Source: Candidatus Saccharimonadota bacterium
GTDB lineage: Bacteria > Bacteroidota > Bacteroidia > Cytophagales > Amoebophilaceae
Reading direction: 5' to 3'
NCBI RefSeq assembly: GCF_965196625.1
Contig: NZ_OZ239769.1
Span: forward strand, 210,001-242,000
Length of the DNA: 32,000 nucleotides
Positions 21 through 26,729 of the stretch are shown in pieces. How positions within the stretch are numbered: the stretch's first letter is position 1; every line of letters begins with the position of its first letter. A program made the translations under genes and the position numbers. Under the pieces are notes generated by a model. That model was not told the origin of the DNA. It did no database searches and was given only the letters and a program-made list of their open reading frames with translations.

Positions 21-3000
21 ATGGCTTCCTTTATGATATGCTTTAATATGTCCCTATTTATAGTGGCTGCTTTTTTGGTACTAACCTTGGTGGTAGGCGT
101 TTACTTTAGTAGAAAGAAAACCACTTTTCGAGAACATGCAGTAGGGAACAAACAGTTTTCTACCGCTACCTTAGTGGCCACAGTGTTAGCTACCTTGTAT
201 GCTGGGTGCACCTTAATGTCTCATGTAGAGTGTATCTACGAATATGGTTTATGGTGGGTAGTGCTTGTACTTTTAGATTGCTTTGGTTTGTGGACTATTA
301 GCAAATTAGCTATTCGGATGGGCTCATTTATGGAGCATCTCTCCATGGCAGAGACGATGGACCATGCCTATGGTAAGTATGCAAGAATTATAACGGCTTT
401 GGTTGGTACTTGTCGTTGCATTATTATCATTACTATGCAGATTACTGTAATGTCCCGAGCTATTGGTATGTGTATTAGTTTGCCTGATCCATATATACTG
501 CCTACCCTTGCGACTTTATTACTTGTTTTCTATTCAGCATTTGGGGGGATTCGTGCCGTTACCTTCACGGATATATTACAATTTATAACTTTTTCGATGA
601 TTATTCCCCTGCTTTCCTGGTTTATGTTTGTAAAAGTAGGGAAGCCAATTTCAGAGATTCTTCCTATACTACAAAGTCAAGCAAAATTTCAGTTTGGGAC
701 CGTATTTCATTTTGATACTAAACTAATAGCTTTATGCTCACTTACATTGACTGTTTTGGTTTCTTATATAATACAACCCCAACTTATCCAACGGGTTTAT
801 ATGTCTTCTAATATTATCCAGGCTCAAAAAGTTTTTTCATACGCTACTATTTTTAATTTTGTTATAATGTTTTTTATTATTCTAGTTCCGCTATTTGTTT
901 TCGTAAGTACGCCAGATTTACCTAAAGCAGAGAGTTGGGGATATATAATGGCCCATATTCCTCCTTCTTTTAAAGGATTTCTTGCCATTAGTTTGTTCGC
1001 TATGGCTATGTCTACAGCAGACTCTTGCTTAAACGCTTCTACTGTTATGATTACGCACGATATATTGCAAAGTATACAAACACGGAAAAAAGTTAATGAT
1101 GCACATCAGGTTAAAATAGCCAGATGGACCACCTTAGTATTGGGTTTATTAGCTATGATATTAGCTTTTCATTGCCAAGATTTATTAAAATTAACGTATT
1201 GGGTCCTCGATTGTGCTGTACCTATTACAGCTGCCCCTTTTATATTAGCCATTTACGGGTTTCGAGGCACTTCTCTTACTGCTTTAGTTGGTATGGCTAC
1301 AGGTCTACTAACTATTTTAGCCTGGAATAAATGGGTTGAGCCTGCAATAGGGATGGATGGCTCTTTCCTGGCTGCTATAGCCAATGGCCTGGCCATGATG
1401 ACTGCCTACTATCTCCTAAAACAACCGGAAAATGCAGGATGGGTGGGTCCAGATGATACATTTAAACAAATGCAACAAGCACATGCGCGCAAAAGAGCAG
1501 AACGCAAAGAAGCCATTAAAAATGGCTGGGCCAATAGAAAAGCCACTTTGGCCAAGTTAGTACCCAGCCATACTACAATAGCATGTGTAGGGCTTTATAG
1601 TGCCATCATCAGCTTGCTCACTTTCTTTATAGCGCCTATTACGCATCATAGCTGCCGGCTTATGTTGCAACTTTTTGGAGCGGCTTGTTGTTTAGGCTAT
1701 CCATTTCTCCATGACATTTCCAAAAAGATAAGGGCCATTCCAAATTGGTTTATTGGCCTATGTTGGCTAATAGGCTTCGGGGGATATCTGCCTTTCAACC
1801 TGATTTTAAATTGTTTTTATTCTAACAACCCAATTTTTATCACATCCTTATCGCTAGCCCATTGTGCGGTAATCTTATGGGTACTACCCTTCTATTTAGC
1901 CATACGAGTGGTAGCAATCGCATTATTAGTCGCTATTTATCCTATTGCTATTGGGTTATCTTTTACAGTATTATACTCCCTATTGCCGTTGTTTATAGCC
2001 AGTTTACTGGTACTGGCCATGGCTATTTGCTTTAAAAGCAAACAAAATCATCATATCAATCAAATTCTTTACCTAAAAGATCAAGAAAAGATTAGAGCAT
2101 CCCAAAAGCTAAAAGCATCCCTTTATGACTCAGCTATGGTGCCCGTTACTGTGGTTAGTAAAGCCAAAGGCTATGGCCCTATTTTGACGCAAGTGGTAGG
2201 CAAAATTGAGGAATCTATCTCTTTTTTAGATGGCAGCACGCCTCTTTATAAGCAGGACTTTCAGAGTATCATCAACAAACTCTATGGCTGGGCGGCCTAT
2301 TTCAATAGAAGGGAAAAAGCCAAAAAGCATGCACTGCTGCAGCCTACTAAAATTACCTTAGAGAAGCTCATCCGTAAAGTGGAATTGGCTTTGTCCCAAG
2401 AGGTGACCAATCCACCTAGACTGCTGATAGAAAATACAAAAGCGCCTAATAAAGCACCCTGCCAGCATATCATATGCGATATCAACCAAGTAGCTTATTT
2501 ATTGGTTCAAGCTGTTTTACGGGTTGGTAAACTAGAGGGCGCCATAGTTGTGCGCATACAACTCCATTCCACTGTTTTGCAATTTAAGCAAGTTGATCCT
2601 ATTGCCAGCAGCCATTCTACATCCATCTCTTTTCAAGCTACTGCACTAGTAATCAGCCAGGCTACTACACCCTCTGAAGCCCTTCCAAAAGTCAAAGCCC
2701 TTTATGATGATGAAATAGATCCTATCGGCCCTAAAGGGAAACAGAAAGACTCCCCATCTATAGATCTTCAACAAGAAACCATCTCCAGTATTGTGGGCGC
2801 CCACTATGGCCATTTGGAGTATGGTGTCCGCGCGCAGCAGCCTACTATGTTACTGGTATTGCCTAATGATGTCACCGATATTCTGAGCAAGATGACTGCT
2901 GCATTGCCTATAGATTGTTTAACCCTAGATACTCCTGTTACCCCTAAGGAACAAGCCGACTCCATGATGGCATTAATGCAGTTTCATGACTATGTTTGCA

Positions 3001-3605
3001 AATCTTCTCATAACATGGATCCTATTGATGTAGGTACCATTTCGGGTTTGCTTTTATTGTTGCGCAAGCACTTTGGCTTTAAGCGGCATGCTTCGGGTCA
3101 ATTGTTTTATGTACGTGCCGTAGGGATTGCCGAATTGGTCGTAAAATGGGTCTTTCACTCGCCTAAAGTGATTTATGCCGCTTTGCTCTATGAATTGGTG
3201 CGCTATACTTGCTTGCCCCTTTCTTATATCAAAGAACATTACAATTTAGGCGTTTATGCTTTTGTTTTAAATATAACAAGCATAGATAAACACCAAGAGC
3301 TAGACCATCCTTCTTTGCTACATGTACAGAATCGATTGAAAGAAGCCATTAAGGAAGAGCACATACAGCTTTCCGTGCTTTTCATCAAACTGGCCGAACG
3401 GCTCTATGATTTACGCCATGCAGCCGGTTACATCCATCTCACAGAGGTACAACATATGGCACAAGAAACCATTGCCGTAGATGTTCAGCTAGCCCATGCA
3501 TATCTAGATCCAGCAATAGGAGCAGCATTAGAAGAAGCAGCCAAAGCAGCACTAGCGCTCTGTAAGCATACAGCTAAAGAACAGTATAAAAAAAGAACAA
3601 GATAG
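21..3605 (+). CDS. Multi-domain membrane protein, paralog A: sodium:solute symporter (SSS/SLC5) domain + second block of ~5-6 TM helices + degenerate histidine-kinase-like module + degenerate RelA/SpoT-type HD domain
   Basis: 1194-aa ORF. SSS hallmarks occur in the first ~480 aa (GGIRAVTFTDILQF, AMAMSTADSCLN, ~13 hydrophobic segments). The C-terminal ~500 aa aligns by eye to an HK DHp/CA module and a SpoT HD domain (see findings). The start homologous to paralog B is the ATG at 33. Confidence 0.85.
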   Translation: MASFMICFNMSLFIVAAFLVLTLVVGVYFSRKKTTFREHAVGNKQFSTATLVATVLATLYAGCTLMSHVECIYEYGLWWVVLVLLDCFGLWTISKLAIRMGSFMEHLSMAETMDHAYGKYARIITALVGTCRCIIIITMQITVMSRAIGMCISLPDPYILPTLATLLLVFYSAFGGIRAVTFTDILQFITFSMIIPLLSWFMFVKVGKPISEILPILQSQAKFQFGTVFHFDTKLIALCSLTLTVLVSYIIQPQLIQRVYMSSNIIQAQKVFSYATIFNFVIMFFIILVPLFVFVSTPDLPKAESWGYIMAHIPPSFKGFLAISLFAMAMSTADSCLNASTVMITHDILQSIQTRKKVNDAHQVKIARWTTLVLGLLAMILAFHCQDLLKLTYWVLDCAVPITAAPFILAIYGFRGTSLTALVGMATGLLTILAWNKWVEPAIGMDGSFLAAIANGLAMMTAYYLLKQPENAGWVGPDDTFKQMQQAHARKRAERKEAIKNGWANRKATLAKLVPSHTTIACVGLYSAIISLLTFFIAPITHHSCRLMLQLFGAACCLGYPFLHDISKKIRAIPNWFIGLCWLIGFGGYLPFNLILNCFYSNNPIFITSLSLAHCAVILWVLPFYLAIRVVAIALLVAIYPIAIGLSFTVLYSLLPLFIASLLVLAMAICFKSKQNHHINQILYLKDQEKIRASQKLKASLYDSAMVPVTVVSKAKGYGPILTQVVGKIEESISFLDGSTPLYKQDFQSIINKLYGWAAYFNRREKAKKHALLQPTKITLEKLIRKVELALSQEVTNPPRLLIENTKAPNKAPCQHIICDINQVAYLLVQAVLRVGKLEGAIVVRIQLHSTVLQFKQVDPIASSHSTSISFQATALVISQATTPSEALPKVKALYDDEIDPIGPKGKQKDSPSIDLQQETISSIVGAHYGHLEYGVRAQQPTMLLVLPNDVTDILSKMTAALPIDCLTLDTPVTPKEQADSMMALMQFHDYVCKSSHNMDPIDVGTISGLLLLLRKHFGFKRHASGQLFYVRAVGIAELVVKWVFHSPKVIYAALLYELVRYTCLPLSYIKEHYNLGVYAFVLNITSIDKHQELDHPSLLHVQNRLKEAIKEEHIQLSVLFIKLAERLYDLRHAAGYIHLTEVQHMAQETIAVDVQLAHAYLDPAIGAALEEAAKAALALCKHTAKEQYKKRTR
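2462..3143 (+). repeat. Near-identical tract shared with 6153..6834 (probable gene-conversion tract between paralogs A and B)
   Basis: By-eye nucleotide comparison at constant offset 3691 shows one mismatch (2885 g vs a) in ~682 nt. Flanking paralogous sequence is clearly more diverged. Confidence 0.85.
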
Positions 3606-3744: not shown

Positions 3745-6700
3745 ATGATCTGCTTGAGCATCCCCCTATTTATAGTAGCTGCTTTTTTGGTACTAACCTT
3801 GGTGGTAGGCGTTTACTTTAGTAGAAAGAAAACCACTTTTCGAGAACATGCAGTAGGGAGTAAACAGTTTGCTACTGCTACTTTGGTAGCCACGGTACTG
3901 GCTACTAATTATAGTGGAGCGGGGTTGTTGCGTATTGTAGAGTGTGTCCATGACCTTGGCTTATGGTGGATCGTTTGCATATCATTAGCTTCTTTTGGCT
4001 ACTGGGCAATCAGTAGACTAGCCATACGCATGGGACCATTTATGCAACACCTCTCTATAGCTGAAACATTAGGTTGTATCTATGGTAAATATTTAAGGGT
4101 GATCACTGCATTGGTCAGTGTTTGTGGGTGCATAGTTGTTATTACTATGCAAATCACTGCAATGTCTCACGCGATTAATATGTGTTTGGGGTCAATTGAT
4201 CCCTTTTTGATTACGTTCCTTTCCACCTTTCTCCTTATTTTTTACTCCACTTTTGGGGGTGTTCGTGCCATTACCTTTACAGATGTATTGCAATTTCTGA
4301 CCTTTGCTATTATTATTCCGTTTCTAGCTTGGTTTATCTTTGTAAAGTTAGATAAACCTGTTGCAACAATTATGCCTATGCTGCAGCATTATCCTAAATT
4401 TCAATTTAGTAGTGTATTCCATTTTAACGCCCAACTCGTGCATATGCTGCTATTGGTTCTATCTTTTATAGTCGATTATACAGGCCCTGAAATTATACAG
4501 CGGGTATATATGGCTTCTGGCCCCATTCAAGCCAAAAAAGTTTTTTTATATGCTATGCTTTTTAATTTGGCTATAACTTTCTTTATAATTTTAATAGGCC
4601 TATTTGTTTTTGCAGGGGCACCTGATTTACCGAAAGCGCAAATTTGGCCCTATATAATCGCTCATATCCCTCCTCTTTTTAAAGGATTTCTTGCAATTGC
4701 TTTATTCGCTATGGCGATGTCTACTGCTGATTCTTGTTTAAATGTTTGTGCGGTTATGGTTGGCCATGATGTGATACAAAGCCTACAAAAGAAACTAGAA
4801 ATCCCTGATGCATTTCAACTTAAAATAGCCAGGCGGACCACACTAATAGTGGGTCTATTAGCGATGCTACTCGCTTTTAAATGTACAGATCTTTTACAAT
4901 TAATGTACTGGTCTATGGACTGCTATGTACCTATTGTAACAGCTCCTTTTATCTTAGCTGTTTTTGGTTTTCGAGGCACTTCCCGTACCGCTTTAATCGG
5001 TATGGCAACAGGCATATTAACCATTTTAGCTTGGAATAAATGGATCGAGCCTGTAACAGGGATAAATGGCTCTTTCATTTGCATGCTGGCCAATGGTCTA
5101 GCCATGATGGCAGCCCACTATCTACCGAAACAGCCAAAAGGTAAAGGGTGGGTTGGTCCAGATGATCAGTTTAAACAATTGCAGCAAGTAAATGCGCGCA
5201 AGCGCGCCGAACGCAAAGAAGCCATTAAAAATGGATGGGCCAATAGAAAAGCTACCTTAGTAAAGCTGATGCCTAGCGATGCTACCTTGCGCTTAACAGG
5301 TCTTTATATCATTGCTACTGCTATTCTTAGTTATTGGTTTATTAAGCCAGATTACATCTATTGGGCTATGGGTCAAGGTCTTGTGGGTGTGTTTTTTACA
5401 TCTTCTAACACCTTCTTTAGCAAAGCGATTCCAACCTGGGTTACTAGTCTAGTTTGGCTACTAGGGTTAGGGATTTATCTGCCTTTAAACCTGCTTTGGA
5501 AGTGGTGGTATCTGGTAGATCCGATCTTTAGTGCGGCTTTATCTTTGGCCCATTGTGCTGTCATTTTATGGGTATTGCCCCTTTATCTGGCCGTAGGGGT
5601 GGTAGCCGTTACTTCGCTGGTAGCCATTTATCCGATTGTTACTGGACTCTCTTTTTCAGTATTGTCTTCCCTATTTCCTTTATTTATAGCGAGTCTGTTG
5701 GTATTTGCCATGGTAATTTGCTTGAAAGTTAAATTAAGGCACTATTTGGCTAAAATTATTTACCTTGAAAGTCAAGAAAAGATTAGGGCATCCCAGCAGC
5801 TAAAGGCATCTCTTTATGACTCGGCTATGGTGCCTTCTATTAGGGTGAGTAAGTCGAAAGGCTATGGCCCTATTTTGGCGCAAGTGGTAGGCAAAATTGA
5901 GGAGTCTATCTCTTTTTTAGATGGCAATACGCCTCTTTATAAGCAGGACTTTCAGAGTATTATCAATAAACTCTATGATTGGGTAACTTATTTTAACAGA
6001 AGAGAAAGGGCTAAAAGGCACGCACTATTGCAGCCTACTAAAATTACATTAGACAAGCTGATGCGTAAGGTAGAGTTGGCGTTATCTCAAGAGGTAGCCA
6101 ATCCGCCTAGGCTGTTGGTAGAAAATACAAGAGCGCCTAATAAGGCACCCTACCAGCATATCATATGCGATATCAACCAAGTAGCTTATTTATTGGTTCA
6201 AGCTGTTTTACGGGTTGGTAAACTAGAGGGCGCCATAGTTGTGCGCATACAACTCCATTCCACTGTTTTGCAATTTAAGCAAGTTGATCCTATTGCCAGC
6301 AGCCATTCTACATCCATCTCTTTTCAAGCTACTGCACTAGTAATCAGCCAGGCTACTACACCCTCTGAAGCCCTTCCAAAAGTCAAAGCCCTTTATGATG
6401 ATGAAATAGATCCTATCGGCCCTAAAGGGAAACAGAAAGACTCCCCATCTATAGATCTTCAACAAGAAACCATCTCCAGTATTGTGGGCGCCCACTATGG
6501 CCATTTGGAGTATGGTGTCCGCGCGCAGCAGCCTACTATGTTACTGGTATTGCCTAATGATGTCACCGATATTCTAAGCAAGATGACTGCTGCATTGCCT
6601 ATAGATTGTTTAACCCTAGATACTCCTGTTACCCCTAAGGAACAAGCCGACTCCATGATGGCATTAATGCAGTTTCATGACTATGTTTGCAAATCTTCTC

Positions 6701-7299
6701 ATAACATGGATCCTATTGATGTAGGTACCATTTCGGGTTTGCTTTTATTGTTGCGCAAGCACTTTGGCTTTAAGCGGCATGCTTCGGGTCAATTGTTTTA
6801 TGTACGTGCCGTAGGGATTGCCGAATTGGTCGTAGAATGGGTCTTTCACTCGCCTAAAGTGATTTATGCCGCTTTGCTCTATGAATTGGTGCGCCATACC
6901 TGTTTGCCCCTTTCTTATATCAAGGAACATTATAATTTAGGCGTTTATGCTTTTGTTTTAAATATAATAAGGATAGATAAACGCCAAGCCTTAGATCATC
7001 CTTCTTTGCTCTATGTGCAAAATCGCTTGAAAGAAGCCATTAAGGAGGAACATGTGCAGCTTTCTGTTTTGTTCATTAAGCTAGCCGAACGGCTTTATGA
7101 CTTACGCCATGCTTCAGGCTATATACACCTACCAGAAGTAGCGCATATGGTGCAAGAAACCCTAGCGATTGATGTTAAGTTGGCCCATGCCTATTTGGGT
7201 CCAGAGATAGGCGACCTGTTAGAAAAAGCTGCTAGAGAAGCATTAGCGCTTTGTAAAGATTTGAATATAGATAAAAGTATAGATCGTGCAAGCTCCTAA
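3745..7299 (+). CDS. Multi-domain membrane protein, paralog B: same SSS + TM block + HK-like + SpoT-HD-like architecture as paralog A
   Basis: 1184-aa ORF, collinear with paralog A over its full length. The 5' leader (ataactattttt) and first ~40 codons are nearly identical to A. Confidence 0.85.
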   Translation: MICLSIPLFIVAAFLVLTLVVGVYFSRKKTTFREHAVGSKQFATATLVATVLATNYSGAGLLRIVECVHDLGLWWIVCISLASFGYWAISRLAIRMGPFMQHLSIAETLGCIYGKYLRVITALVSVCGCIVVITMQITAMSHAINMCLGSIDPFLITFLSTFLLIFYSTFGGVRAITFTDVLQFLTFAIIIPFLAWFIFVKLDKPVATIMPMLQHYPKFQFSSVFHFNAQLVHMLLLVLSFIVDYTGPEIIQRVYMASGPIQAKKVFLYAMLFNLAITFFIILIGLFVFAGAPDLPKAQIWPYIIAHIPPLFKGFLAIALFAMAMSTADSCLNVCAVMVGHDVIQSLQKKLEIPDAFQLKIARRTTLIVGLLAMLLAFKCTDLLQLMYWSMDCYVPIVTAPFILAVFGFRGTSRTALIGMATGILTILAWNKWIEPVTGINGSFICMLANGLAMMAAHYLPKQPKGKGWVGPDDQFKQLQQVNARKRAERKEAIKNGWANRKATLVKLMPSDATLRLTGLYIIATAILSYWFIKPDYIYWAMGQGLVGVFFTSSNTFFSKAIPTWVTSLVWLLGLGIYLPLNLLWKWWYLVDPIFSAALSLAHCAVILWVLPLYLAVGVVAVTSLVAIYPIVTGLSFSVLSSLFPLFIASLLVFAMVICLKVKLRHYLAKIIYLESQEKIRASQQLKASLYDSAMVPSIRVSKSKGYGPILAQVVGKIEESISFLDGNTPLYKQDFQSIINKLYDWVTYFNRRERAKRHALLQPTKITLDKLMRKVELALSQEVANPPRLLVENTRAPNKAPYQHIICDINQVAYLLVQAVLRVGKLEGAIVVRIQLHSTVLQFKQVDPIASSHSTSISFQATALVISQATTPSEALPKVKALYDDEIDPIGPKGKQKDSPSIDLQQETISSIVGAHYGHLEYGVRAQQPTMLLVLPNDVTDILSKMTAALPIDCLTLDTPVTPKEQADSMMALMQFHDYVCKSSHNMDPIDVGTISGLLLLLRKHFGFKRHASGQLFYVRAVGIAELVVEWVFHSPKVIYAALLYELVRHTCLPLSYIKEHYNLGVYAFVLNIIRIDKRQALDHPSLLYVQNRLKEAIKEEHVQLSVLFIKLAERLYDLRHASGYIHLPEVAHMVQETLAIDVKLAHAYLGPEIGDLLEKAAREALALCKDLNIDKSIDRASS
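6153..6834 (+). repeat. Partner of the near-identical tract 2462..3143
   Basis: See 2462..3143. Confidence 0.85.
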
Positions 7300-7432
7300 T
7301 CGTTGTATACCACTTTGCACTTGATCAGGTTTCAATAAAAAGTGGTAAAATGCTCCATAATCTGAAGAGGAGCTCTCCTTTTTAAAGCGGATTGATTATA
7401 TTGCAACTGATCAACTACTTAAACCAATCACT

Positions 7433-7735
7433 ATGATTCAGAAAGAACAAGTCATAGAAGCCATTAAACAAGTTTATGATCCAGAAATACCGGTAGACAT
7501 CTACGAACTAGGGCTTATTTACGACATTACCATTTTACCACTCAATAACATTGAAATTTTAATGACCCTTACCTCTCCTAATTGTCCAGCGGCTGATATT
7601 ATACCCAGTCAAGTCGAAGAAAAAATTAAAGCAATAGAGGAAGTACACGAAGTAACGGTACATCTTACCTTTGACCCCCCTTATACAATAGACCGAATGT
7701 CTGAAGCAGCTAAATTAGAACTGGGATTTGCTTAA
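7433..7735 (+). CDS. sufT: DUF59/MIP18-family Fe-S cluster assembly protein (SufT-like), copy 1
   Basis: 100 aa with VYDPEIPVDIYELGLIYDI ... MTLTSPNCPAA ... DPPYT..RMSEAAKLELGF, typical of the small SUF-associated DUF59 proteins. Confidence 0.85.
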   Translation: MIQKEQVIEAIKQVYDPEIPVDIYELGLIYDITILPLNNIEILMTLTSPNCPAADIIPSQVEEKIKAIEEVHEVTVHLTFDPPYTIDRMSEAAKLELGFA

Positions 7736-7792
7736 GCAGCTCCCACTTGATCTATCTTATGGTATATCTTTTATTTTTCTTCTGTTTATGCA

Positions 7793-10219
7793 ATGGCCCA
7801 AAATAATTATAAAGTTCAATCAGATACACCCCCCAAAAAAGGGACATCCAATCGACCTGTATTTGACCAACGCATCAAAATAACCATTGGTTTTTTGCTA
7901 CAGGGGGTTAGTATTTTTCTAGCCTTTGCCTTCTCTGCACATCTGATGCATGGCGCTAAAGATCAGCATATTATTGAGTCTTTTCGAACCTTAGGGATCA
8001 AAGCATCTAGTCTAGCCATTGCCAACTGGTTGGGTTTTACGGGGGCTTATGTAAGCTATTACTGCGTCCATATATGGTGGGGCATCACCGCTTTTATCTT
8101 TTTGCCTTTTCTATTTTTAATGGGGATAAAAATGGTCACACGCAGGATTTGGCCCAATATTTCTTTATTAAAAGTGATGATGGCCTCCATTTTTCTTGTA
8201 TTATGGTCGAATATTCTATTGGGTTATCTATATACACTCTACCCAACCGCTACGCTACTCGCGAACCATCTAGGCGGAGTGGGCTATGAGCTTGGCACCT
8301 TGTTTAAAGGATTATTGGGCTATGGTACCTTTATCTTACTTTTTATTACTTGCATCATCTTTGTAGTAGTATGTTTTAACATCACCTCTTTACCGACCAT
8401 TCATTTATTTGCCACTAAAAAGGTAAAAAAGGATAATGACCCTTTAGCCCATCAGGACAATACTAGCGACAGTGACCCATTTGACGGAGAAAGCGAGCGA
8501 CCATCTGGTAAAAAAAAAACGAATGATAGCGCAGCGCAACATCCCACTACAGATGCAGCACATGGCAACGACACAGCCAGGGTAGAAACGGCCCACAAAA
8601 GCCATATAGACTTTGAAGTAGTAGCCGCCCCTCAACCCTCCTCTAAAAATCTATCTAAATCAGCTCTATCTGCTCCTCCATCAACGATACCATTACAGCA
8701 GCTTAGGAGTGAAAACTACGACCCCACGTTAGACCTATCTAGCTATAAGTATCCCTCTTTAGAGCTATTAGAACGGTATGAACAAGCACAACGATCTGTT
8801 ACGCAAGAAGAATTGGCCATTAATAAAAACAATATTGTACAAACCTTACAAAACTTTAAAATCAATATAGCCAAAATAAAAGCTACCATTGGCCCTACTG
8901 TTACCCTTTATGAAATTGTACCCGAAGCAGGGGTAAAGATTTCGAAGATCAAAAATCTTGAAGATGATATTGCACTGAACCTAGCTGCGCTAGGCATTCG
9001 CATCATTGCTCCGATACCAGGAAAAGGGACCATTGGCATTGAAGTACCCAACAAAAACAGAGAAGTAGTACCCCTTCAGGAGATGCTCGCCTCTGAAAAG
9101 TTTTTAAAAGGAAAAATGGATTTGCCCATTGTATTGGGTAAAAGCATTTCGAATGAATTGTTTATTGCAGATTTGGGCCGCATGCCCCATCTGCTCATTG
9201 CAGGTGCGACTGGGCAAGGCAAATCTGTCGGGCTCAATGTGCTACTGACCTCTTTGATTTATAAAAAGCATCCCTCTCAATTAAAACTGGTATTGGTAGA
9301 TCCTAAAAAAGTGGAACTTTCTTTATACAATAGATTAGAGCGTCACTTTTTGGCTAAATTACCCATTAGTGAGGAGCCCATTATTACAGAAACCAAAAAA
9401 GTAATCCATACATTGAATTCTTTATGCATTGAAATGGACCACCGCTATGAGCTATTAAAAGAAGCAGGCACCCGGAATATTAAAGAATACAATGAAAAAT
9501 TTATAAAAAGGATATTGAACCCTCAAGAAGGGCATCGCTTTTTACCCTACATTGTATTGGTTATAGATGAATTTGCCGATATGATGATGACAGCAGGTAA
9601 AGAAATAGAGGTACCCATTGCCCGACTGGCCCAATTGGCACGTGCCATCGGGATCCATCTGGTTTTGGCTACACAAAGGCCCTCTGTAAATGTCATTACA
9701 GGCATTATCAAAGCTAACTTTCCCGTTCGGATTTCCTATAAGGTAAGCTCACGCATTGACTCTAGAACCATTTTAGATGCAAGTGGTGCGGAACAATTAG
9801 TAGGCAATGGGGATATGTTGCTTTCTATGAACTCTGATATCATCCGGCTACAAACGCCTTTTTTAGATACCGCAGAAGTAGAACGGGTCTGTAGCTACAT
9901 TGGTGGACAACAAGGCTACCCATCTGCTTACCTACTCCCTACGTATGATGAAGAAGACAAAGAGGAGACGGTAGATTTACAAGAGACAGATCCTTTATTT
10001 GAAGAAGCAGCCAGGCTGATTGTATTACATCAACAAGGCAGCACTTCCTTGATCCAACGCAAGCTAAAGCTGGGCTACAACCGATCTGGCAGGCTGATAG
10101 ACCAATTGGAAGCAGCAGGCATTGTAGGCCCCTTTGAGGGTAGCAAAGCCAGAGAAGTGTTGGTATCAGATGAAGCGGGTTTAAATGACATCTTAGAACG
10201 GTTGCTGCAGAAAGGTTAA
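7793..10219 (+). CDS. ftsK: DNA translocase FtsK/SpoIIIE
   Basis: 808 aa with N-terminal TM helices and a low-complexity linker. The motor domain has Walker A (GATGQGKS) and Walker B (VLVIDEFADMMM). A C-terminal gamma winged-helix is present (STSLIQRKLKLGYNRSGRLIDQLE). Confidence 0.95.
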   Translation: MAQNNYKVQSDTPPKKGTSNRPVFDQRIKITIGFLLQGVSIFLAFAFSAHLMHGAKDQHIIESFRTLGIKASSLAIANWLGFTGAYVSYYCVHIWWGITAFIFLPFLFLMGIKMVTRRIWPNISLLKVMMASIFLVLWSNILLGYLYTLYPTATLLANHLGGVGYELGTLFKGLLGYGTFILLFITCIIFVVVCFNITSLPTIHLFATKKVKKDNDPLAHQDNTSDSDPFDGESERPSGKKKTNDSAAQHPTTDAAHGNDTARVETAHKSHIDFEVVAAPQPSSKNLSKSALSAPPSTIPLQQLRSENYDPTLDLSSYKYPSLELLERYEQAQRSVTQEELAINKNNIVQTLQNFKINIAKIKATIGPTVTLYEIVPEAGVKISKIKNLEDDIALNLAALGIRIIAPIPGKGTIGIEVPNKNREVVPLQEMLASEKFLKGKMDLPIVLGKSISNELFIADLGRMPHLLIAGATGQGKSVGLNVLLTSLIYKKHPSQLKLVLVDPKKVELSLYNRLERHFLAKLPISEEPIITETKKVIHTLNSLCIEMDHRYELLKEAGTRNIKEYNEKFIKRILNPQEGHRFLPYIVLVIDEFADMMMTAGKEIEVPIARLAQLARAIGIHLVLATQRPSVNVITGIIKANFPVRISYKVSSRIDSRTILDASGAEQLVGNGDMLLSMNSDIIRLQTPFLDTAEVERVCSYIGGQQGYPSAYLLPTYDEEDKEETVDLQETDPLFEEAARLIVLHQQGSTSLIQRKLKLGYNRSGRLIDQLEAAGIVGPFEGSKAREVLVSDEAGLNDILERLLQKG

Positions 10220-12816: not shown

Positions 12817-14289
12817 TCAATAGGCCTGCGCAAAAACCACCCGCCTTTTAGAGGGTTTCCCTGAATAGATACAATAGCCCGGCTCCTCGTTGTCATCTAA
12901 GGGTATACAACGGATCGTGGCTTTTGTTTCCGCTTTAATCTTTTCTTCTGTTTCGGTAGTACCATCCCAATGAGCCATCAAAAAGCCCCCTGTACCCGCA
13001 ACAAGCTTTTTAAAAGTAGGATAGTCATCCACCAACAGGGTACGCGCTTGGTGTACGGAAAGAGCGCGCTGGTAGATGTGGGTCTGAATGGCTTCTAACC
13101 AATCTGTAACCTGTTGGGTCAAATGGTCCATAGGAATGGTTACTTTCTCTTTTGTATCCCTACGGGCCAATTCTACCGTCTTATTTTGCAAATCATTCGG
13201 CCCTAAGGCGATACGAATAGGTACACCTTTTTGCTCATATTCTGCAAATTTATAACCTGGCTTACGGGTAGCTCTGTCATCTAACTGCACACGCACACCC
13301 TGTGCGATCAATAGCGCTTTACAACTAGATAATTGCGCTACTACTGCGGCGCGTTCTGCCTCTGTTTTATAAATCGGCACCATCACTACCTGTATAGGCG
13401 CAATTTTAGGCGGCAATACCAAGCCATCATCATCCGAATGGATCATAATCAAAGCACCCATCAGCCGGGTGGTAATGCCCCAGGAAGTACCCCATACATA
13501 ATCCCGTATGCCGGATTGATTGGTAAAAGTTACCTCAAAGGCTTTGGCAAATCGTTGGCCTAGGTAGTGTGCGGTACCCACTTGCAGCGCCTTTCCATCT
13601 TGCATAAGCGCCTCAATGGTATAGGTGGTTTCTGCACCGGCAAAACGCTCATTTAGGGTTTTAGTGCCTTTTATTAAAGGTATCGCCATATAGTCTGTAA
13701 CGATCCGTTCATACAAATGCAACATTTGTAAAGCCTCTGCTTCAGCCTCTGCCTGGGTAGCATGGGCGGTATGGCCCTCTTGCCATAAAAACTCTGTGGT
13801 ACGCAAAAAAAGCCTTGTCCGCATTTCCCAACGGACTACGTTGCACCACTGATTGAGTAAAATAGGCAGATCTCTGTAGGATTGAATCCAATTTTTATAG
13901 GTACTCCATATAACCGTTTCTGAGGTAGGCCGCACAATCAGCTCTTCCTCTAACTTAGCAGCAGGGTCGACTACCACACTACGGCCATCTTCGGCCATCT
14001 TTAAACGATAATGGGTCACAACGGCACATTCTTTAGCAAAGCCTTCCACATGGCCTGCCTCTTTGCTAAAGTAAGATTTTGGAATGAGTAAAGGAAAATA
14101 GCCATTTACATGGCCGGTTTCTTTAAAGGCAGCATCAAAAATAGCTTGTAGCTTTTCCCAAATGGCATAGCCATAAGGTTTAATCACCATACAGCCCCGA
14201 ACAGAAGCATTTTCAGCCAGACCTGCACGTACGACCAATTCATTATACCAAGCGGAAAAATTGGATGCTCTTGTAGGTAAAGGGGTCAT
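12817..14289 (-). CDS. proS: Prolyl-tRNA synthetase (archaeal/eukaryote-like class II type, ~490 aa)
   Basis: The ORF track gives 12817..14358. Codons upstream of [19 protein letters not shown] are rnpB-derived sequence, so the start is set at 14289. The remainder has the conserved ProRS catalytic core, anticodon-binding domain and C-terminal ...VVFAQAY. Confidence 0.9.
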
Positions 14290-14317
14290 ATCTAAAGAGA
14301 AAAATAATAAAAGAAAA

Positions 14318-14416
14318 ACAAGCCTATAAGCCGGGTTCTGTAGTGCACGATCGCGCACTGCTTGTCATTTATCTGGAGCCATAATCACTTATAGCCTCTA
14401 GCGGCCCACCCACATG
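14318..14416 (-). pseudogene. rnpB: Orphan 3'-terminal ~99-nt fragment of RNase P RNA
   Basis: It matches the 3' end of the complete rnpB at 26631..26729, including ACAGAACCCGGCTTAT (P4 3' strand). It differs from that copy at 2 positions. It is cut off at 14416, where dnaK sequence begins. Confidence 0.85.
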
Positions 14417-15289
14417 GTGTTTTCGCACACCATCAATGGCTGTAATATAGGGGAGATTAATCTCTGTAGTAGTTGCACTAGAAAGCTCAATTTTGGCTTT
14501 TTCAGCAGCTTCTCTCAGACGCTGTAAGGCAGTTGGATCCTGTCTTAAATCAACACCCTCTTCCTTTTGAAAGCTATCTGCAAGCCAATCTGTTATTTTT
14601 TGGTCAAAATCATCTCCACCTAGATGGATATCCCCATTGGTAGATTTAACTTCAAAAATGCCATCACCCAGCTCTAAAATAGAAATGTCAAAAGTACCAC
14701 CCCCAAGGTCAAATACAGCGATAGTGATATCTTTATTTTTTTTGTCCAGACCATAGGCTAAAGCAGCAGCGGTTGGCTCATTAATAATACGCTTTACAGT
14801 CAAACCGGCTATTTCTCCCGCTTCTTTAGTGGCTTGTCGCTCTGCATCATTAAAATAAGCAGGTACGGTAATAACCGCATCTGTAACAGTAGTACCCAAG
14901 TAATCCTCTGCCCCACTTTTCATCTTTTGCAGGATAATAGCAGAAAGCTCTTGGGGGGTATACTGCCGATCACCAATCCGTACACGAACGGTATTGTTAG
15001 CTCCACTTTCTACCTTATAGGCAACTTCATTGATCTCATTAGCAACACTATTGTAACCTTTACCCATAAAACGCTTAATGGAACTTATGCTATTATGAGG
15101 ATTTATAATGGCCTGACGCTTAGCGGGGTCACCTACTTTACGTTCACCCTTTCCTCCATTTAAAAAAGCCACTACAGATGGTGTAATTCTCTTGCCTTCA
15201 TTATTAGGAATCACTACTCGCTCGTTGCCTTCCATAACCGCAACACAGGAATTAGTAGTTCCTAAATCAATTCCAATTATTTTTCCCAT
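14369..15289 (-). pseudogene. dnaK: Truncated dnaK: N-terminal nucleotide-binding domain only (~291 codons), reading into rnpB-derived sequence
   Basis: Canonical [18 protein letters not shown] ... [10 protein letters not shown] ... INLPYITA. Homology ends at 14417, and the last 16 codons are translated rnpB fragment. The substrate-binding domain and lid are absent. Confidence 0.85.
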
Positions 15290-15464: not shown

Positions 15465-16418
15465 CTATTTTGAAAAGCTTTTCCTGTACCGATTTGGGTG
15501 GTTTAGAATATCTCTGGCTTGCTCCAACATTTCAGTTGCATACCCCTGTTCTGATAGTATATCTATAGCAATGGTTTGATGAGAGGCACCAGGCACTACC
15601 TTATAGGTATAGTGAATTTTCCCATCTTTGCCCATAGACTTAATATAAACTTTATAATTTTTAAACCCTTTTTTAGGCTCACGTTCTTCTAAAAGCATCA
15701 CAATTGGATAGTGGGTAGCTACAATATTCAGGGCGTTACTATATTTTGCAATATAATTTAATACAGAATATTCTGCTGCCGCACCTTCTGCTGGATTGGT
15801 TCCAGTGAAGGGTTCATCAAAAATAGTGAAACTAAACGCCTCCTCTTTTAACCCTTTTAATAATTCTAAATGGGACTGAAAACGATCAACTTCTGCCATG
15901 AATAGTGATTTGCCAGCTACAATGTCATCAGTAGTATAAATATAGGCATTTATTTTACTGAATGGTGTCATTTCACAGGACTTAGCAGGCGCTATACCAA
16001 AAGTTTGACTTAACACAACCGCTGTGGTTACACCGGTTAAAAAGGTAGATTTACCCCCTGCATTGGGGCCTGTTAAAATGATATTTTGGGTCTCCTGGTC
16101 CATGGTGACATCATTGCCAATAGCTGTAGTAGGCGTTAACATAGGATTCCACATTTCAACAAGCGCCAAACGAGGTTTTGTATGGGTGTTGGATGATAAG
16201 AATTTGGTAAATGTATAAGTATGTAGCCCATTGATTGCAGCTGTTTCTTCCATAAGCGTCACTATAGATAAAAAAGCATCTAACTCCCCCAAGGCATACA
16301 TGGCATCATGAAAAACAGCCTTATGCGCTAGAAATAGCTTATAGCTTGCCAATAGTTTGCCAGCATGACCCCATAAATAAGACCAAGAACGGAAGGGTAG
16401 TTCTTCTAAATAACGCAA
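15465..16418 (-). CDS. MutS-related protein, C-terminal half (MutS domain V ABC-type ATPase)
   Basis: Walker A ILTGPNAGGKSTFL, LFMAEV, Walker B FTIFDEPFTGTNP and ATHY. The ORF starts only at a TTG and overlaps the upstream ORF by 13 nt in another frame. Confidence 0.75.
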   Translation of the reverse strand: MRYLEELPFRSWSYLWGHAGKLLASYKLFLAHKAVFHDAMYALGELDAFLSIVTLMEETAAINGLHTYTFTKFLSSNTHTKPRLALVEMWNPMLTPTTAIGNDVTMDQETQNIILTGPNAGGKSTFLTGVTTAVVLSQTFGIAPAKSCEMTPFSKINAYIYTTDDIVAGKSLFMAEVDRFQSHLELLKGLKEEAFSFTIFDEPFTGTNPAEGAAAEYSVLNYIAKYSNALNIVATHYPIVMLLEEREPKKGFKNYKVYIKSMGKDGKIHYTYKVVPGASHQTIAIDILSEQGYATEMLEQARDILNHPNRYRKSFSK

Positions 16419-17572
16419 TTACCTACTTCAGATGGTTCATGTGCACGTGCCAATAGTAGCCTTATAGGACCAAGTTGTGAACCATATAATGCTTCTAAAG
16501 CAGGATTTTGTTGAACCAATGCATTGATTTTTTTAAGGGTAATCAAAAAGGTTTGTAGATCCGCCATACGCAGGGCAAGATTACTCAGCACACCTGCATA
16601 CTCCTTGTAGTTGTGGTAGGCTTTATAGTATTGCCAGAAGGAATAGATGGTAACAATCGAAGGTTGAATGTATTCCAGGAAGATCAAAGAGGCATCAGGC
16701 CTAGGCTTCATATCTCTAATGGTTTTAGTAAGATAATATAAGTTGTATATAGGCAGATACATCCAGTATCGGTTTCTATAGAAAGCGCCACGTGATAGCT
16801 TAGAACCCATTTGATAGGCTAATTCTGTAATAGGAAGCCCTAACACTACAGGATACCACATGTAATTAGAATAAATGTCCCAAATATCTCGCACCAATAC
16901 TTTTCTTTTTTGCAGCGTACGAGCCCTTTTGTTCAAAGCAGCCGAAGGGGTATAAAATAGTTTGGTTAAATATTTATTATATTCTTCAGCATATAAGGGA
17001 TCTATCTCTGTCCAAAAAGAGAGCATCGCTCGTTCAGATGCTTTATAGTTTTGCAGCTCGCCCCTTAAATTATTATAAAGCTGAGTGTTTTTGCACAAAA
17101 AACTTATCAATCGCTGACGTCTGGTAAGGGCTTCAAGATTAGCAACCGGTGCAGCGAGCAGTGAAGCAAACGCCCCCTCCCCTAAAACCGTAACCGTCTT
17201 ATTAATCCGAGATAGGAAATGATAAGCTGGTGTAGTAGCCGTTCCACAAAAAAGATGCAAATCAGACCATGCATATTTATTCAATACATTACCTACTTTA
17301 TTGTATTGCTGCTGGTAGTAGTTGCTTTTGGCAAAAATTTCATTGAATACTGCCGAACGTTCTCCTTTTAGAGAAAGATGAATGTCAAAAATAGTTATAT
17401 CTGGAATTTTTGATTTTTTTATCTCATGAACCTTTGGCAAAGGCACTACTGCTTCAGTAAATGATTTTAAATAGTGCTCAGCTAGTTGAGTAGCCATGGA
17501 AGAACTCTTTTCGATCGCTGTAACAGAAGCTGGCAAACAAAATATAAATAGGAGGGATAAAACGATACGCAT
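16406..17572 (-). CDS. MutS-related protein, N-terminal half (signal-peptide-like N-terminus + MutS core/clamp-like region)
   Basis: MRIVLSLLFIFCLPASVTA|IEK resembles a Sec signal or anchor. TVTVLGEGAFASLLAAPVANLEALTRRQRLISFL resembles the MutS domain III motif (T.T.mG.RlL...L..Pl.d...I..R). It is probably one gene with 15465..16418, split by a frameshift. Confidence 0.7.
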   Translation of the reverse strand: MRIVLSLLFIFCLPASVTAIEKSSSMATQLAEHYLKSFTEAVVPLPKVHEIKKSKIPDITIFDIHLSLKGERSAVFNEIFAKSNYYQQQYNKVGNVLNKYAWSDLHLFCGTATTPAYHFLSRINKTVTVLGEGAFASLLAAPVANLEALTRRQRLISFLCKNTQLYNNLRGELQNYKASERAMLSFWTEIDPLYAEEYNKYLTKLFYTPSAALNKRARTLQKRKVLVRDIWDIYSNYMWYPVVLGLPITELAYQMGSKLSRGAFYRNRYWMYLPIYNLYYLTKTIRDMKPRPDASLIFLEYIQPSIVTIYSFWQYYKAYHNYKEYAGVLSNLALRMADLQTFLITLKKINALVQQNPALEALYGSQLGPIRLLLARAHEPSEVGNCVI

Positions 17573-20309: not shown

Positions 20310-21104
20310 ATGAAATAGATGCTATCGGCCCTAAAGGGAAACAGAAAGACGCCACACCAATAGATCTCCAACAAGAAACCATATCCAGTATTGTTGGCGC
20401 ACACTATGGCTATTTGGAGTATATGGTGCATGAACCTAACAAAGAAGCTAGTATCCTACTGGTATTGCCTAATGATGTCACCGATATTCTAAGCAAGATA
20501 ACGGCTGCACTACCCCTAGATTGCTTAATCTTAGAGACCTCTGTCACCCCTAAGGAGCAAGCCGATTCCATGATGACCTTAATGCAGTTCCATGACTATG
20601 TTTGCAAATCTTCTCATAACATGGATCCTATTGATGTAGGCACCATTTCGGGTTTGCTTTTATTGCTGCGAAAGCACTTTGGCTTTAAGCGGCATGCATC
20701 CGGTCAACTGTTTTATGTACGGGCCGTAGGGAATTGCCGAATTGGTAGTAGAATGGGTCTTTCACTCGCCTAAAGTGATTTATGCCGCTTTGCTATATGA
20801 ATTGGTGCGCTATACTTGCTTGCCCCTTTCTTATATCAAAGAACATTACAATTTAGGCGTTTATGCTTTTGTTTTAAATATAAAAAGGATAGATAAACGC
20901 CAAGAGCTAGACCATCCTTCTTTGCTACACGTACAGAATCGATTGAAAGAAGCCATTAAGGAAGAACACATACAGCTTTCCGTGCTTTTCATCAAACTGG
21001 CCGAACGGCTCTATGATTTACGCCATACAGCCGGTTACATCCATCTCACAGAGGTACAACATATGGCACAAGAAACGCTGGCTATAGATGTTAAATTAGC
21101 TTAG
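20310..21104 (+). pseudogene. Fragment C of the symporter-fusion family (end of HK-like module + SpoT-HD-like domain), frameshifted and truncated at both ends
   Basis: Aligns to paralog A at ~2712-3500. A 1-nt insertion near 20737 (gtagggAattgcc) splits it into ORFs 20414..20773 and 20742..21104. It ends at ...AIDVKLA, before the family C-terminus. Confidence 0.85.
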
Positions 21105-23197: not shown

Positions 23198-23734
23198 AAA
23201 CGCTTTAATACGCACGATATATTGCAAAATATACAAACACGGAAAAAGTTGATGATGCACATCAGGTTAAAATAGCCAGGTGGACACCTTAGTATTGGGT
23301 TTATTAGCTATGATATTAACTGTAGTAGTCAAGATTTATTAAAATTAACGTATTGGGTCCTCGATTGTGTTGTACCTATTATAGCTGCCCCTTTTATATT
23401 AGCTATCTTTGGTTTCCGAGGAACTTCCCGTACTGCTTTAATTGGTATGACTACAGGCATGGCAACTATGCTAGCTTGGAACAGGTGGATTCTACCTTCA
23501 ACAGGGATGAATGGGTCCTTCCTTTCTCCTGTAGCCAATACCTTAGCCATGATGGCTGCCCACTATCTACTGAAACAGCCGGAAAGTGCAGGGTGGGTTG
23601 GTCCAGATGATCAGTTTAAACAATTGCAGCAAGTAAATGCGCGCAAAAGAGCAGAACGAAAAGAAACCATTAAAAATGGCTGGGCCAATAGAAAAGCCAC
23701 TTTGGCTAAGTTAGTACCCAGCCATATTATAATA
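23198..23734 (+). pseudogene. Fragment D of the symporter-fusion family (end of SSS domain + conserved linker)
   Basis: Aligns to paralog A at ~1030-1575, with secure homology from 23209. It has at least two 1-nt deletions (an A5 vs A6 run at ~23244; ggacacc vs ggaccacc at ~23283). A 12-nt patch is replaced by IS-end sequence, and the fragment abuts the IS481-family element. Confidence 0.85.
23321..23338 (+). repeat. Solo copy of the first 18 nt of the IS481-family terminal repeat
   Basis: tgtagtagtcaagattta is identical to 23735-23752. The last 8 nt (aagattta) are native to the symporter gene (compare 1180-1187). Confidence 0.7.

Positions 23735-25516: not shown

Positions 25517-26729
<1,213 letters not shown>

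Follow-up and report, generated by a model that had tools for sequence, protein, structure and literature searches.

Pseudo-hydrolases of the RSH family are, to our knowledge, so far essentially limited to RelA, in which a dead HD domain regulates the adjacent synthetase. CbrA/CrbS-type SSF sensor kinases comprise an N-terminal sodium:solute symporter followed by a histidine-kinase-type cytoplasmic module. Small alarmone hydrolases (SAHs: Mesh1, PaSAH, RelH, TdActApo2) are soluble Mn2+ enzymes of ~180 residues. In E. coli RelA, the pseudo-HD domain is regulatory and hydrolytically inactive (PMC8012599). Amoebophilus has been classed as 'Rel + rickSpo expansion', with 15 RSHs (Atkinson et al. 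2011, PMC3153485), and the family examined here was probably what had been counted as 'spoT/sodium glucose cotransporter' homologues (Brown et al. 2018, PMC6232779).

The 32,000-nucleotide stretch of DNA analysed here (the window) belongs to a Cardinium-like insect/mite endosymbiont and carries, in tandem, two genes for large membrane transporter-like proteins, paralogues A and B. Pseudogenes and IS elements are numerous in the window. The features considered are as follows.

21..3605, + strand: paralogue A (from the ORF list), 1194 aa; SSF symporter, second membrane block, kinase-like module and putative pseudo-HD domain
144..1304, + strand: sodium:solute symporter (SSF) domain of A (PF00474, E 7e-21, 74.9 bits)
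1431..2090 (boundaries approximate), + strand: linker and second hydrophobic (multi-TM) block of A, from Kyte-Doolittle peaks
2091..2885, + strand: histidine-kinase-like module of A, from Foldseek of a predicted model; coiled-coil/DHp-like part at 2091-2330, CA-like alpha/beta domain at 2331-2885
2973..3590, + strand: putative pseudo-hydrolase HD domain of A (Pfam HD_4 match at 3066-3497)
3084..3119, + strand: motif I of A, RHASGQLFYVRA, counterpart of R-K-S-G-E-P-Y-x-x-H-P
3183..3209, + strand: motif II of A, LLYELVRYT, counterpart of LLHDxxEDT, with HD replaced by YE and ED by RY
3387..3413, + strand: motif III of A, KLAERLYDL, counterpart of KLADRxHNM, with Asp144 replaced by Glu and Asn148 by Asp
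3745..7299, + strand: paralogue B, 1184 aa, domain order as in A (Pfam HD_4 match at 6757-7188)
6775-6810, 6874-6900 (LLYELVRHT) and 7078-7104 (KLAERLYDL), + strand: motifs I, II and III of B
2462-3143 in A and 6153-6834 in B, + strand: gene-conversion tract, 1 mismatch in 682 nt
20311..21102, + strand: fragment C, remnant of a third paralogue, truncated at both ends, with a 1-bp insertion near 20731; motifs I, II and III at 20690-20725, 20790-20816 and 20994-21020
23330..23730, + strand: fragment of another copy (SSF end and linker), adjoining an IS integrase gene

Profile, pairwise and predicted-fold evidence confirmed that A and B end in an RSH-type HD domain. The HD_4 match (PF13328) that the original prediction had proposed as a check lies above the curated cut-off of 27.2 bits in both paralogues, at 35.1 bits in A (aa 1016-1159, E 1.3e-8) and 33.0 bits in B (E 6e-8). 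The peptide quoted in that prediction, ...LRKHFGFKRHASGQLFYVRAVGIAELVVKWVFHSPKVIYAALLYELVRYTCLPLSYIKEHYNLGVYAFVLNITSIDK...VLFIKLAERLYDLRH, was found at aa 1014-1133 of A, and its alignment to SpoT was returned in identical register by BLASTP against the N-terminus of the real E. coli protein (E 3e-6, 24% identity over 162 aa). The positions first given for the motifs of B were off by 1-6 nt; the motifs themselves are present. A phmmer search against the PDB gave B. subtilis Rel as the best match (E 6e-4), followed by SpoT, T. thermophilus Rel and MESH1. For aa 985-1194 of A, an AlphaFold model (pLDDT 85.3, pTM 0.82) had one low-confidence stretch, aa 1093-1110, in the α6-α7 loop. By Foldseek, it matched the hydrolase domains of Rel, SpoT, RelA and SAH proteins with query-normalised TM-scores of up to 0.71, and superposed on RelSeq 1vj7_B with an rmsd of 2.8 Å over 193 columns. 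The best 42 matches (to E 0.33) were all RSH or other HD-type hydrolases, with unrelated folds among the few rows beyond.

At the N-terminus, the SSF profile (aa 42-428 of A) scored 74.9 bits in A and 53.7 bits in B, with positions 4-406 of 406 covered; the NCBIfam sss superfamily also matched A, with a score under its cut-off. The original view of an HD domain fused to a transporter holds in so far as one ORF contains both, but the fusion is not direct, as ~550 aa of second membrane block and histidine-kinase-like module lie between SSF and HD in A. The second membrane block, with Kyte-Doolittle peaks at aa 520-538, 578-596 and 653-671 of A, is also present in family members of ~690 aa that have no SSF. 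As predicted, no (p)ppGpp synthetase domain follows: Pfam found no RelA_SpoT domain in A, and the protein ends ~60 aa past the HD domain. In place of the stand-alone, HD-only small protein that defines the SAH class, the HD domain forms the end of a multidomain membrane protein of 1194 aa.

The kinase-like nature of the middle module shows at fold level only, in a model (m41cbed3ac98e) with a mean pLDDT of 66 and low confidence, below 50, in the DHp-like helices. Its top 50 Foldseek matches were mostly DHp-CA kinases, including CckA 5idj (E 1e-6), HK853 and RetS, and also contained phytochromes, a hybrid response regulator and BceS; CA-only matches had target TM-scores of 0.62-0.69, with NtrB CA 1r62 at 0.69. 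Pfam found neither HisKA nor HATPase_c in A, B or their canonical relatives (described below), and phmmer of aa 461-993 of A against the PDB gave chance matches only. In an alignment of 25 family sequences, the H, N and G boxes were absent: the coiled-coil region has no conserved His, 'CD' stands at the N-box position, and only 'AHYG' occurs near G2.

In alignments to Rel and SpoT, all four Mn2+ ligands of the HD domain are replaced in A and B, as are the Glu-Asp dyad and Asn148. The H...HD...D metal-ligand signature is absent from A, which has R1032, Y1057-E1058 and E1126 instead; R1061-Y1062 in A, and R-H in B, stand at the catalytic dyad, and D1130 at Asn148. The individual changes, in B. 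subtilis Rel numbering paired with ORF A residues, are as follows.

H53 (first metal-ligand His): R1032
H77: Y1057
D78: E1058
E81: R1061
D82: Y1062 (His in B)
D144: E1126
H147: Y1129
N148: D1130
R44: H1023
K45: A1024
T151: H1133

Thus the claim that every alignable catalytic position is changed was borne out, and the same three motifs, substituted alike, were found in B and fragment C. Conserved His or Asp residues elsewhere in the domain would have spoken for competence; the profile alignment offered no in-register alternative. The change from HN to YD had been counted as part of the lost site, which is right for N148D; H147 to Tyr is not diagnostic, since human MESH1 has Tyr there too ('KLADKLYNLR'). 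We infer from these alignments that the domain neither binds Mn2+ nor hydrolyses (p)ppGpp. A hard metal (Mg2+ or Ca2+) may be bound at the old site, as three carboxylates (E1058, E1126, D1130) persist near it.

An exhaustive search with the family profile gave 393 matches, many of which are proteins of ~1110-1245 aa with an architecture identical to that of A and B and a canonical HD domain carrying 'SGEPFYLHP', 'LLHDVVEDT' and 'KLADRLHNMRT'. These canonical relatives (P0098 = MBX9890476.1, P0087, P0105 = MEM9738141.1) match a profile of A/B relatives (E 1e-19 to 1e-33) from the second TM block through to the C-terminal end, share the kinase-like module with its 'AHYG' motif, and retain H53, H77, D78, E81, D82, D144 and N148, which A and B do not. 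They score 80-106 bits against HD_4, compared with 33-35 bits for A and B, and also match Pfam HD (PF01966), which has no match in A or B. As they keep the site and score highly, they are presumably active hydrolases. They probably correspond to the 'rickSpo[H] expansion' of Cand. Amoebophilus asiaticus and to the 'spoT/sodium glucose cotransporter' homologues (PMC3153485, PMC6232779). The original prediction took the fusion to be unusual for RSH domains, which did not hold: the whole family carries it in Amoebophilaceae and related Bacteroidota, with a canonical HD site there, and this wide distribution indicates that the SSF-HD fusion is ancestral.

Among 172 HD domains, 62 were fully canonical and 60 had the complete R-Y-x-x-x-E-D pattern, with ~20 further independent degenerate variants. 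Sequence distances place the dead version in one clade of single origin (the pseudo clade): 58 of 59 'RY' sequences formed one split in 60/60 neighbour-joining bootstrap trees, computed with 12 catalytic/signature columns removed and saturated distances capped, and distances were 2.5 between groups and 0.9 and 1.2 within them. The KLAERLYDL pattern retrieved 55 loci of this clade, spread over three Amoebophilaceae MAGs and seven Cardinium genomes. The ORF is intact at ~36 of them, and several of the loci form arrays, such as the four copies within 41 kb in cEhis1. The closest copy retrieved, from Cardinium sp. TP, is 77% identical. One Amoebophilaceae MAG holds both types, canonical (P0098) and dead (P0068), and canonical copies also occur in the Cardinium of Culicoides punctatus, a Cardinium MAG and one further contig. 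The best-scoring long RSH (P0191), used as query, returned Elusimicrobia- and Chitinivibrionales-like Rel proteins, with no Cardinium among the 120 matches listed, and was uninformative on a (p)ppGpp synthetase in Cardinium.

Across 60 complete-motif copies, the pseudo clade has a residue set of its own, with Arg, Tyr, Glu and Asp at old catalytic positions and, in place of Arg44, Pro49 and His147, the residues His, Leu and Tyr, respectively. Arg occurs at old H53 in 60/60 copies and Tyr is fixed at old H77, both clade-defining positions; the 100% values at H53, H77, D144 and N148 are partly circular, the groups having been defined on those positions. Old Asp78 is variable (D30/E22/G7/A1), as is the old Glu81-Asp82 dyad, with R/V/H/C/I/Q/G at 81 (Arg in 38/60) and Y/H/R at 82. 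The near-invariant and chemically capable replacements (carboxylates, Tyr, Arg), and the strong selection on the domain reported below, would be expected if it were still a hydrolase with a rebuilt site, Tyr/Glu/Glu/Asp with another metal or Arg-assisted chemistry, possibly acting on a new substrate. We consider this improbable, as neither of the His ligands by which the HD superfamily is defined remains, the variation at Asp78 and Glu81-Asp82 is unexpected for catalytic residues, and H53R and D144E are also found in the hydrolytically inactive RelA (PMC8012599).

The scaffold of the nucleotide pocket is partly retained in the pseudo clade: Ser46 in 53/60 copies, Gly47 in 57/60, Thr83 in 44/60, Lys141 in 60/60, Arg145 in 59/60 and Arg150 in 48/60, with the base-stacking Tyr50 position aromatic or hydrophobic (F49/L10). 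Together with the two arginines that enter the former metal site (positions 53 and 81) and a very low dN/dS, which suits a precise binding surface, this scaffold is what one would look for in a non-hydrolysing receptor, in which occupancy of the old pocket by (p)ppGpp, (p)ppApp or a nucleotide from the host gates or reports on the symporter. Such a receptor is possible but unlikely, given that the phosphate-contacting residues are gone (Arg44 to His in 59/60, Lys45 to Ala in 43/60) and Asn148 and Thr151 are changed. That the dead HD domain, as a hydrolysis-incompetent alarmone/nucleotide receptor, directly gates the Na+/solute symporter seems to us rather doubtful. If it did, nutrient uptake in an obligate intracellular symbiont would be adjusted to a second messenger or host nucleotide that a pseudo-enzyme senses. 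The active-HD paralogues would work the other way round, with transport controlling alarmone degradation, and both together would make up a 'transceptor' branch of the stringent-response machinery, membrane-bound and so far undescribed.

A comparison of A with B is unfit for judging constraint because gene conversion has homogenised 682 nt, including motif I; the tract runs from the last part of the kinase-like domain through the linker and motif I, and DNA identity outside it is 45-91%. We dropped this comparison in favour of copies from different genomes. Among intact Cardinium copies, the HD domain had a median dN/dS of 0.121 (IQR 0.104-0.141), the lowest in the protein, compared with 0.277 (SSF domain), 0.318 (CA-like domain) and 0.345 (second membrane block). 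It fell below each of these in 149/149 pairs by pairwise Nei-Gojobori estimates, in which the pairs are non-independent, some dS values are near 1 and the paralogues undergo gene conversion. The guess of a pseudo-hydrolase under constraint, for which a dN/dS estimate had been suggested, is thereby supported: as the most conserved part of the protein, the HD domain points to a repurposed pseudo-enzyme, not decay.

Fragments of the family are nonetheless many, both in the window (fragment C, 23330-23730) and in other Cardinium genomes, and 81 'SSS/HD-domain fragments' of Cardinium cTPut have been given as MITE candidates (PMC12039267). With the pseudogenes and IS elements of the window, they would suit a functionless, decaying relic or part of a selfish repeat carried in a degrading, IS-rich genome. 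This we regard as very improbable: the ~36 full-length ORFs are intact in seven genomes, the new residues have become fixed, no other part of the protein has a dN/dS as low as that of the HD domain (0.12), and even fragment C differs from A mostly synonymously (pN/pS 0.09 and 0.26), which indicates recent inactivation. We rejected simple gene decay on the same observations.

We think it probable that the ~200-aa tail of A and B is a catalytically dead, selectively kept descendant of a membrane-anchored SAH-type HD domain, now a non-catalytic regulatory or structural module; by analogy, a regulatory role is most likely. The ancestral family combines an SSF symporter, a second TM block, a kinase-like module and an HD_4 domain with an intact H..HD..ED..D..N site. 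One duplicate lineage, in Cardinium and its nearest Amoebophilaceae relatives, lost all four Mn2+ ligands and the Glu-Asp dyad, then fixed a new set of residues at the old catalytic positions, and expanded into tandem arrays and symporter-less forms of ~690 aa; no part of these proteins is under stronger purifying selection than the HD domain. Arg1032, joined in many copies by Arg1061, plausibly occupies the former metal site and forms pairs with Glu1058, Glu1126 and Asp1130. Like the pseudo-hydrolase of E. coli RelA, an allosteric switch, the domain could act as a non-catalytic module, with a dimeric kinase-like module linking solute binding or transport in the membrane part to an output in the form of an interaction or a change of conformation. 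In another version, the pseudo-HD domain may gate the transporter from the cytoplasmic side.

Compared with known systems, the domain resembles SAHs in being an RSH-type HD domain without a synthetase, and its model has target-normalised TM-scores of 0.6-0.7 to 6yvc, 7p1y and 7qoc; unlike these soluble enzymes, it has no metal ligand. The likeness to CbrA/CrbS suggests a 'transceptor' logic by analogy, although the A/B kinase module lacks the H, N and G boxes and any Pfam kinase match, no response-regulator partner is in evidence, and the output is an HD or pseudo-HD domain. For the canonical relatives, this arrangement suggests an undescribed coupling of solute sensing or transport to alarmone degradation. 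Expression in Cardinium cEper1 extends to all 12 of its putative Na/solute symporters, which may include pseudo-clade members, with two of them ranking among the top genes (PMC5698495). The clade offers an entry point to a family that counts with the most abundant 'symporters' of Cardinium and Amoebophilus and, in cEper1, with the most highly expressed ones, and whose function the genome papers give as unknown.

A close parallel is the pseudo-hydrolase of E. coli RelA. In both, the RSH-type HD fold is conserved, the metal/catalytic motif is lost and the α6-α7 loop is divergent, and RelA shares the changes of H53 to Arg ('LWRGV' in RelA, 'YVRAV' in A), D144 to Glu ('KLAERI', 'KLAERL') and R44 to His. 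In place of HD and ED, RelA has FP and DA, but A has YE and RY. The degeneracy and conservation of a RelA-type pseudo-hydrolase are both found in A and B, but the adjacent synthetase is not: the RelA domain adjoins a synthetase on a ribosome-bound soluble protein, whereas that of A and B ends a polytopic membrane protein. The A/B pseudo-HD domain would be functionally RelA-like without being a RelA-type member, and its origin is independent, so the shared changes, two key substitutions among them, are convergent. The A/B clade would be a second, independent and much expanded case of an RSH pseudo-hydrolase, in a wholly different setting, at the cytoplasmic end of a transporter-like membrane protein of reproductive-parasite symbionts. 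In some lineages, coexisting paralogues of the presumably active and the dead type provide a natural matched pair for the post-enzymatic function of HD domains.

The window has a G+C content of ~40% and abundant IS elements and pseudogenes, and the close relatives of its large ORFs all come from Candidatus Cardinium, a member of the Bacteroidota (Amoebophilaceae) that lives inside arthropods and nematodes as an endosymbiont. Two tandem genes, ORF A and ORF B, each encode an N-terminal sodium:solute symporter domain and, after ~550 aa, a C-terminal HD_4 domain (Pfam); the closest copy of this type of gene, at 77% identity, is found in Cardinium sp. TP. The family members and transposases of the window are:

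21–3605, + strand: ORF A, 1194 aa, tandem paralogue of ORF B
3745–7299, + strand: ORF B, 1184 aa, tandem paralogue of ORF A
17867–19081, − strand: transposase, Mutator/IS256-type (PF00872)
20311–21102: fragment C, remnant of a third paralogue, truncated at both ends, with a 1-bp insertion
23774–24862, − strand: transposase, rve integrase-type, adjoining a symporter fragment at 23330–23730

The HD_4 domain scored 35.1 bits in A and 33.0 bits in B (Pfam cut-off 27.2). By phmmer, its best match among PDB sequences was B. subtilis Rel (E 6e-4), followed by SpoT, T. thermophilus Rel and human MESH1. With the genuine N-terminus of E. coli SpoT (MG1655), BLASTP gave an alignment of 162 aa (E 3e-6, 24% identity), in exactly the register that the original prediction had given. 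An AlphaFold model of A residues 985–1194 (pLDDT 85.3, pTM 0.82) superposed with Rel, SpoT, RelA and SAH hydrolase domains in Foldseek; the best 42 matches were RSH or other HD-type hydrolases, with query TM-scores up to 0.71 and an rmsd of 2.8 Å to RelSeq 1vj7_B.

Hydrolase-site positions (B. subtilis Rel numbering) and their counterparts in A
H53, Mn2+ ligand: R1032
H77, Mn2+ ligand: Y1057
D78, Mn2+ ligand: E1058
D144, Mn2+ ligand: E1126
E81, catalytic dyad: R1061
D82, catalytic dyad: Y1062 (His in B)
N148: D1130
R44: H1023
K45: A1024
T151: H1133

Aligned to Rel, A and B have lost all four Mn2+ ligands and the catalytic dyad to substitution, as had been predicted, and no synthetase domain follows the HD domain in either protein, also as foreseen. 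The change of His147 to Tyr, offered as a further mark of loss, is present but not diagnostic, because MESH1 carries Tyr there too.

Between the symporter and HD domain, a conserved linker precedes a second hydrophobic block (aa ~515–675 in A), which is followed in A and B by a coiled-coil region and an alpha/beta domain. Foldseek matched a model of A residues 641–1194 (mean pLDDT 66; 70–89 in the alpha/beta part) to DHp-CA histidine kinases such as CckA, HK853, RetS and ZraS (E ~1e-6), and to CA-only structures with target TM-scores of 0.62–0.69. In the family members examined, the module lacks a conserved phospho-acceptor His and the N, G1 and G2 boxes, and Pfam HisKA and HATPase_c have no match; we therefore name it kinase-like rather than a kinase. 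Its only conserved motifs are 'CD' and 'AHYG' (AHGGY in some relatives). The HD domain thus shares an ORF with the transporter, as claimed, but does not adjoin it, the kinase-like module intervening.

A word-indexed search with aa 641–1194 returned 58 proteins, all of the named ones belonging to Cardinium, comprising long symporter-fused forms and ~690-aa forms beginning at the second membrane block. An exhaustive profile search for the family returned 393 proteins, including, outside Cardinium, many of ~1110–1245 aa with the architecture of A and B, among them proteins from an Amoebophilaceae MAG and a Bacteroidota MAG. The HD domains of these relatives are fully canonical ('RKSGEPFYLHP', 'LLHDVVEDT', 'IKLADRLHNMRT'), scoring 80–106 bits with HD_4 and matching Pfam HD too. 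Since the same architecture occurs with a canonical HD domain beyond Cardinium, the joining of symporter and RSH hydrolase domain is an ancestral, widespread trait of this lineage, not the unusual feature first supposed, and the Cardinium-side copies are the degenerate ones. This fits published homologue counts: 'Rel + rickSpo[H] expansion, 15 RSHs' for Amoebophilus (Atkinson et al. 2011, PMC3153485), and 'spoT ... /sodium glucose cotransporter' homologues numbering 18 in Amoebophilus and 7, 3 and 2 in three Cardinium strains (Brown et al. 2018, PMC6232779). Transcriptome papers describe 19 putative symporters in Amoebophilus and 12 in Cardinium cEper1 as expressed and of unknown function (PMC8831229, PMC5698495). 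The texts searched mention neither the loss of catalytic residues nor the kinase-like module.

Among 172 HD-domain matches in 200 family proteins, 62 were fully canonical at H53/H77/D78/E81/D82/D144/N148, ~60 read R-Y-(D/E/G)-x-(Y/H/R)-E-D, and ~20 showed other, independent degenerations (e.g. RHDEQDG, NHNDVEI, DNGEDEA). In the R-Y...E-D group the new residue set is fixed, and several non-defining positions are nearly so, with His for Arg44 (59/60), Leu for Pro49 (58/60) and Tyr for His147 (58/60); Lys141 (60/60) and Arg145 (59/60) are kept. In neighbour-joining trees built without 12 catalytic or signature columns, a single split with a long stem held 58 of 59 sequences with Arg at H53 and Tyr at H77 in 60/60 bootstraps, which indicates a single ancient inactivation of this clade. 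The one exception, P0131 (1170 aa), gained Arg and Tyr independently. Residual catalysis by a rebuilt site seems unlikely, because the dyad and old Asp78 positions vary within the clade (D30/E22/G7/A1 at Asp78; R/V/H/C/I/Q/G at Glu81). Outside the Cardinium clade, parts of the catalytic set have been lost independently in ~20 family members, among them the metagenome proteins P0131, P0141, P0115, P0165, P0194, P0156 and P0126. Loss of catalysis seems, from these sequences, recurrent in the transporter-fused family.

We compared pairwise Nei-Gojobori dN/dS among intact long copies, in 149 pairs whose whole-gene dS lay between 0.05 and 1.2.

Median dN/dS by region
Symporter (SSF): 0.277
Second membrane block: 0.345
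Coiled coil: 0.178
Kinase-like domain: 0.318
Linker: 0.259
HD domain: 0.121 (IQR 0.104–0.141)

The HD value is the lowest of the protein, and was below those of the symporter, membrane block and kinase-like domain in 149/149 pairs, although pairs are non-independent, some dS values are near saturation and paralogues exchange sequence; retention under constraint, as originally proposed, is upheld. A and B share a 682-nt tract with one mismatch (A 2462–3143, B 6153–6834), being 45–91% identical elsewhere; the tract is a product of recent gene conversion. It runs from the end of the kinase-like domain through the linker and HD motif I (the region around H53), and the A–B pair was therefore left out of the dN/dS test.

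Fragment C differs from A mostly at synonymous sites (pN/pS 0.09 and 0.26), which rules out a long-dead relic and marks it as evidently a third functional paralogue that broke down recently. A 195-aa ORF without a Pfam match (21233–21820, +), in a stretch of low GC (~32%), follows it directly. Because the rve integrase-type gene adjoins the symporter fragment, IS disruption of a further family copy is suggested at 23330–23730. Other seemingly broken genes lie in 14369–15289 (−), 15465–17572 (−), 19470–20318 (+) and 21851–23130 (+). Apparently broken are dnaK, ending after HSP70 profile position 286/599; a MutS-like gene in two ORFs (domains III and V); a TLC ATP/ADP-translocase ORF covering only profile positions 136–410 of 491; and a folC-like Mur-ligase gene in two ORFs. 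A segmental duplication of 98–100% identity (7334–7906 with 24925–25499; 13205–14353 with 25517–26666) contains an FeS_assembly_P gene (7433–7735 = 25024–25326), the start of ftsK, and proS. In the second copy the ftsK-tsaD-lolE stretch has been lost and proS is split between two ORFs (25702–26418 and 26345–26671).

Scanning one genome per species with a degenerate pattern located 55 loci, in seven Cardinium genomes (TP, cOegibbosus, cBcalN2, cEhis1, cEina3, cBtQ1 and the Tipula unca symbiont) and three Amoebophilaceae MAGs, with ~23 long and ~13 short intact ORFs, often clustered. Single-contig clusters in other Cardinium genomes resemble the tandem A–B pair: L007, L013, L011 and L019 lie within 41 kb on contig 2 of Cardinium hertigii cEhis1, and L046, L017, L020 and L015 across ~80 kb on contig 58 of cEina3. 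One MAG holds both a canonical (P0098) and a degenerate (P0068) copy. Canonical copies also occur in Cardinium, in the Culicoides punctatus symbiont (P0179) and a Cardinium MAG, and P0330 (534 aa; 1,374,024-bp contig) is fully canonical; P0179 and P0330 combine this site with 'AHGGY' in the kinase-like domain. Although P0179 lacks a synthetase domain, its annotation reads 'bifunctional (p)ppGpp synthase/hydrolase RelA'. Some Cardinium lineages retain canonical-HD paralogues; family searches surfaced none in clade-A strains, weak negative evidence. The original prediction was essentially right, amended for the intervening module, the ancestral fusion and coexisting active-type paralogues.

From its residues, we infer that the HD domain of the inactivated clade binds no Mn2+ and hydrolyses no alarmone. 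Its pocket may still bind nucleotide, since Ser46, Gly47, an aromatic at 50, Lys141, Arg145 and Arg150 are kept and arginines enter the former metal site, although Arg44 and Lys45 are lost. In canonical relatives, the membrane part would control hydrolase activity through a dimeric kinase-like module, so that alarmone degradation is coupled to solute; the inactivated clade would keep this conformational coupling, with binding or gating as its output instead of catalysis. By analogy, the domain of the inactivated clade is probably a non-catalytic regulatory or structural module, an RSH pseudo-hydrolase whose architectural and biological setting is new. Its best analogue is the pseudo-hydrolase domain of RelA, an allosteric switch with a divergent α6–α7 loop (PMC8012599). 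By direct alignment, both carry Arg at H53, Glu at D144 and His at R44 ('GH...LWRGV' and 'KLAERI' in RelA), and the counterpart of RelA's divergent loop is the sole low-confidence part of the model of A residues 985–1194.
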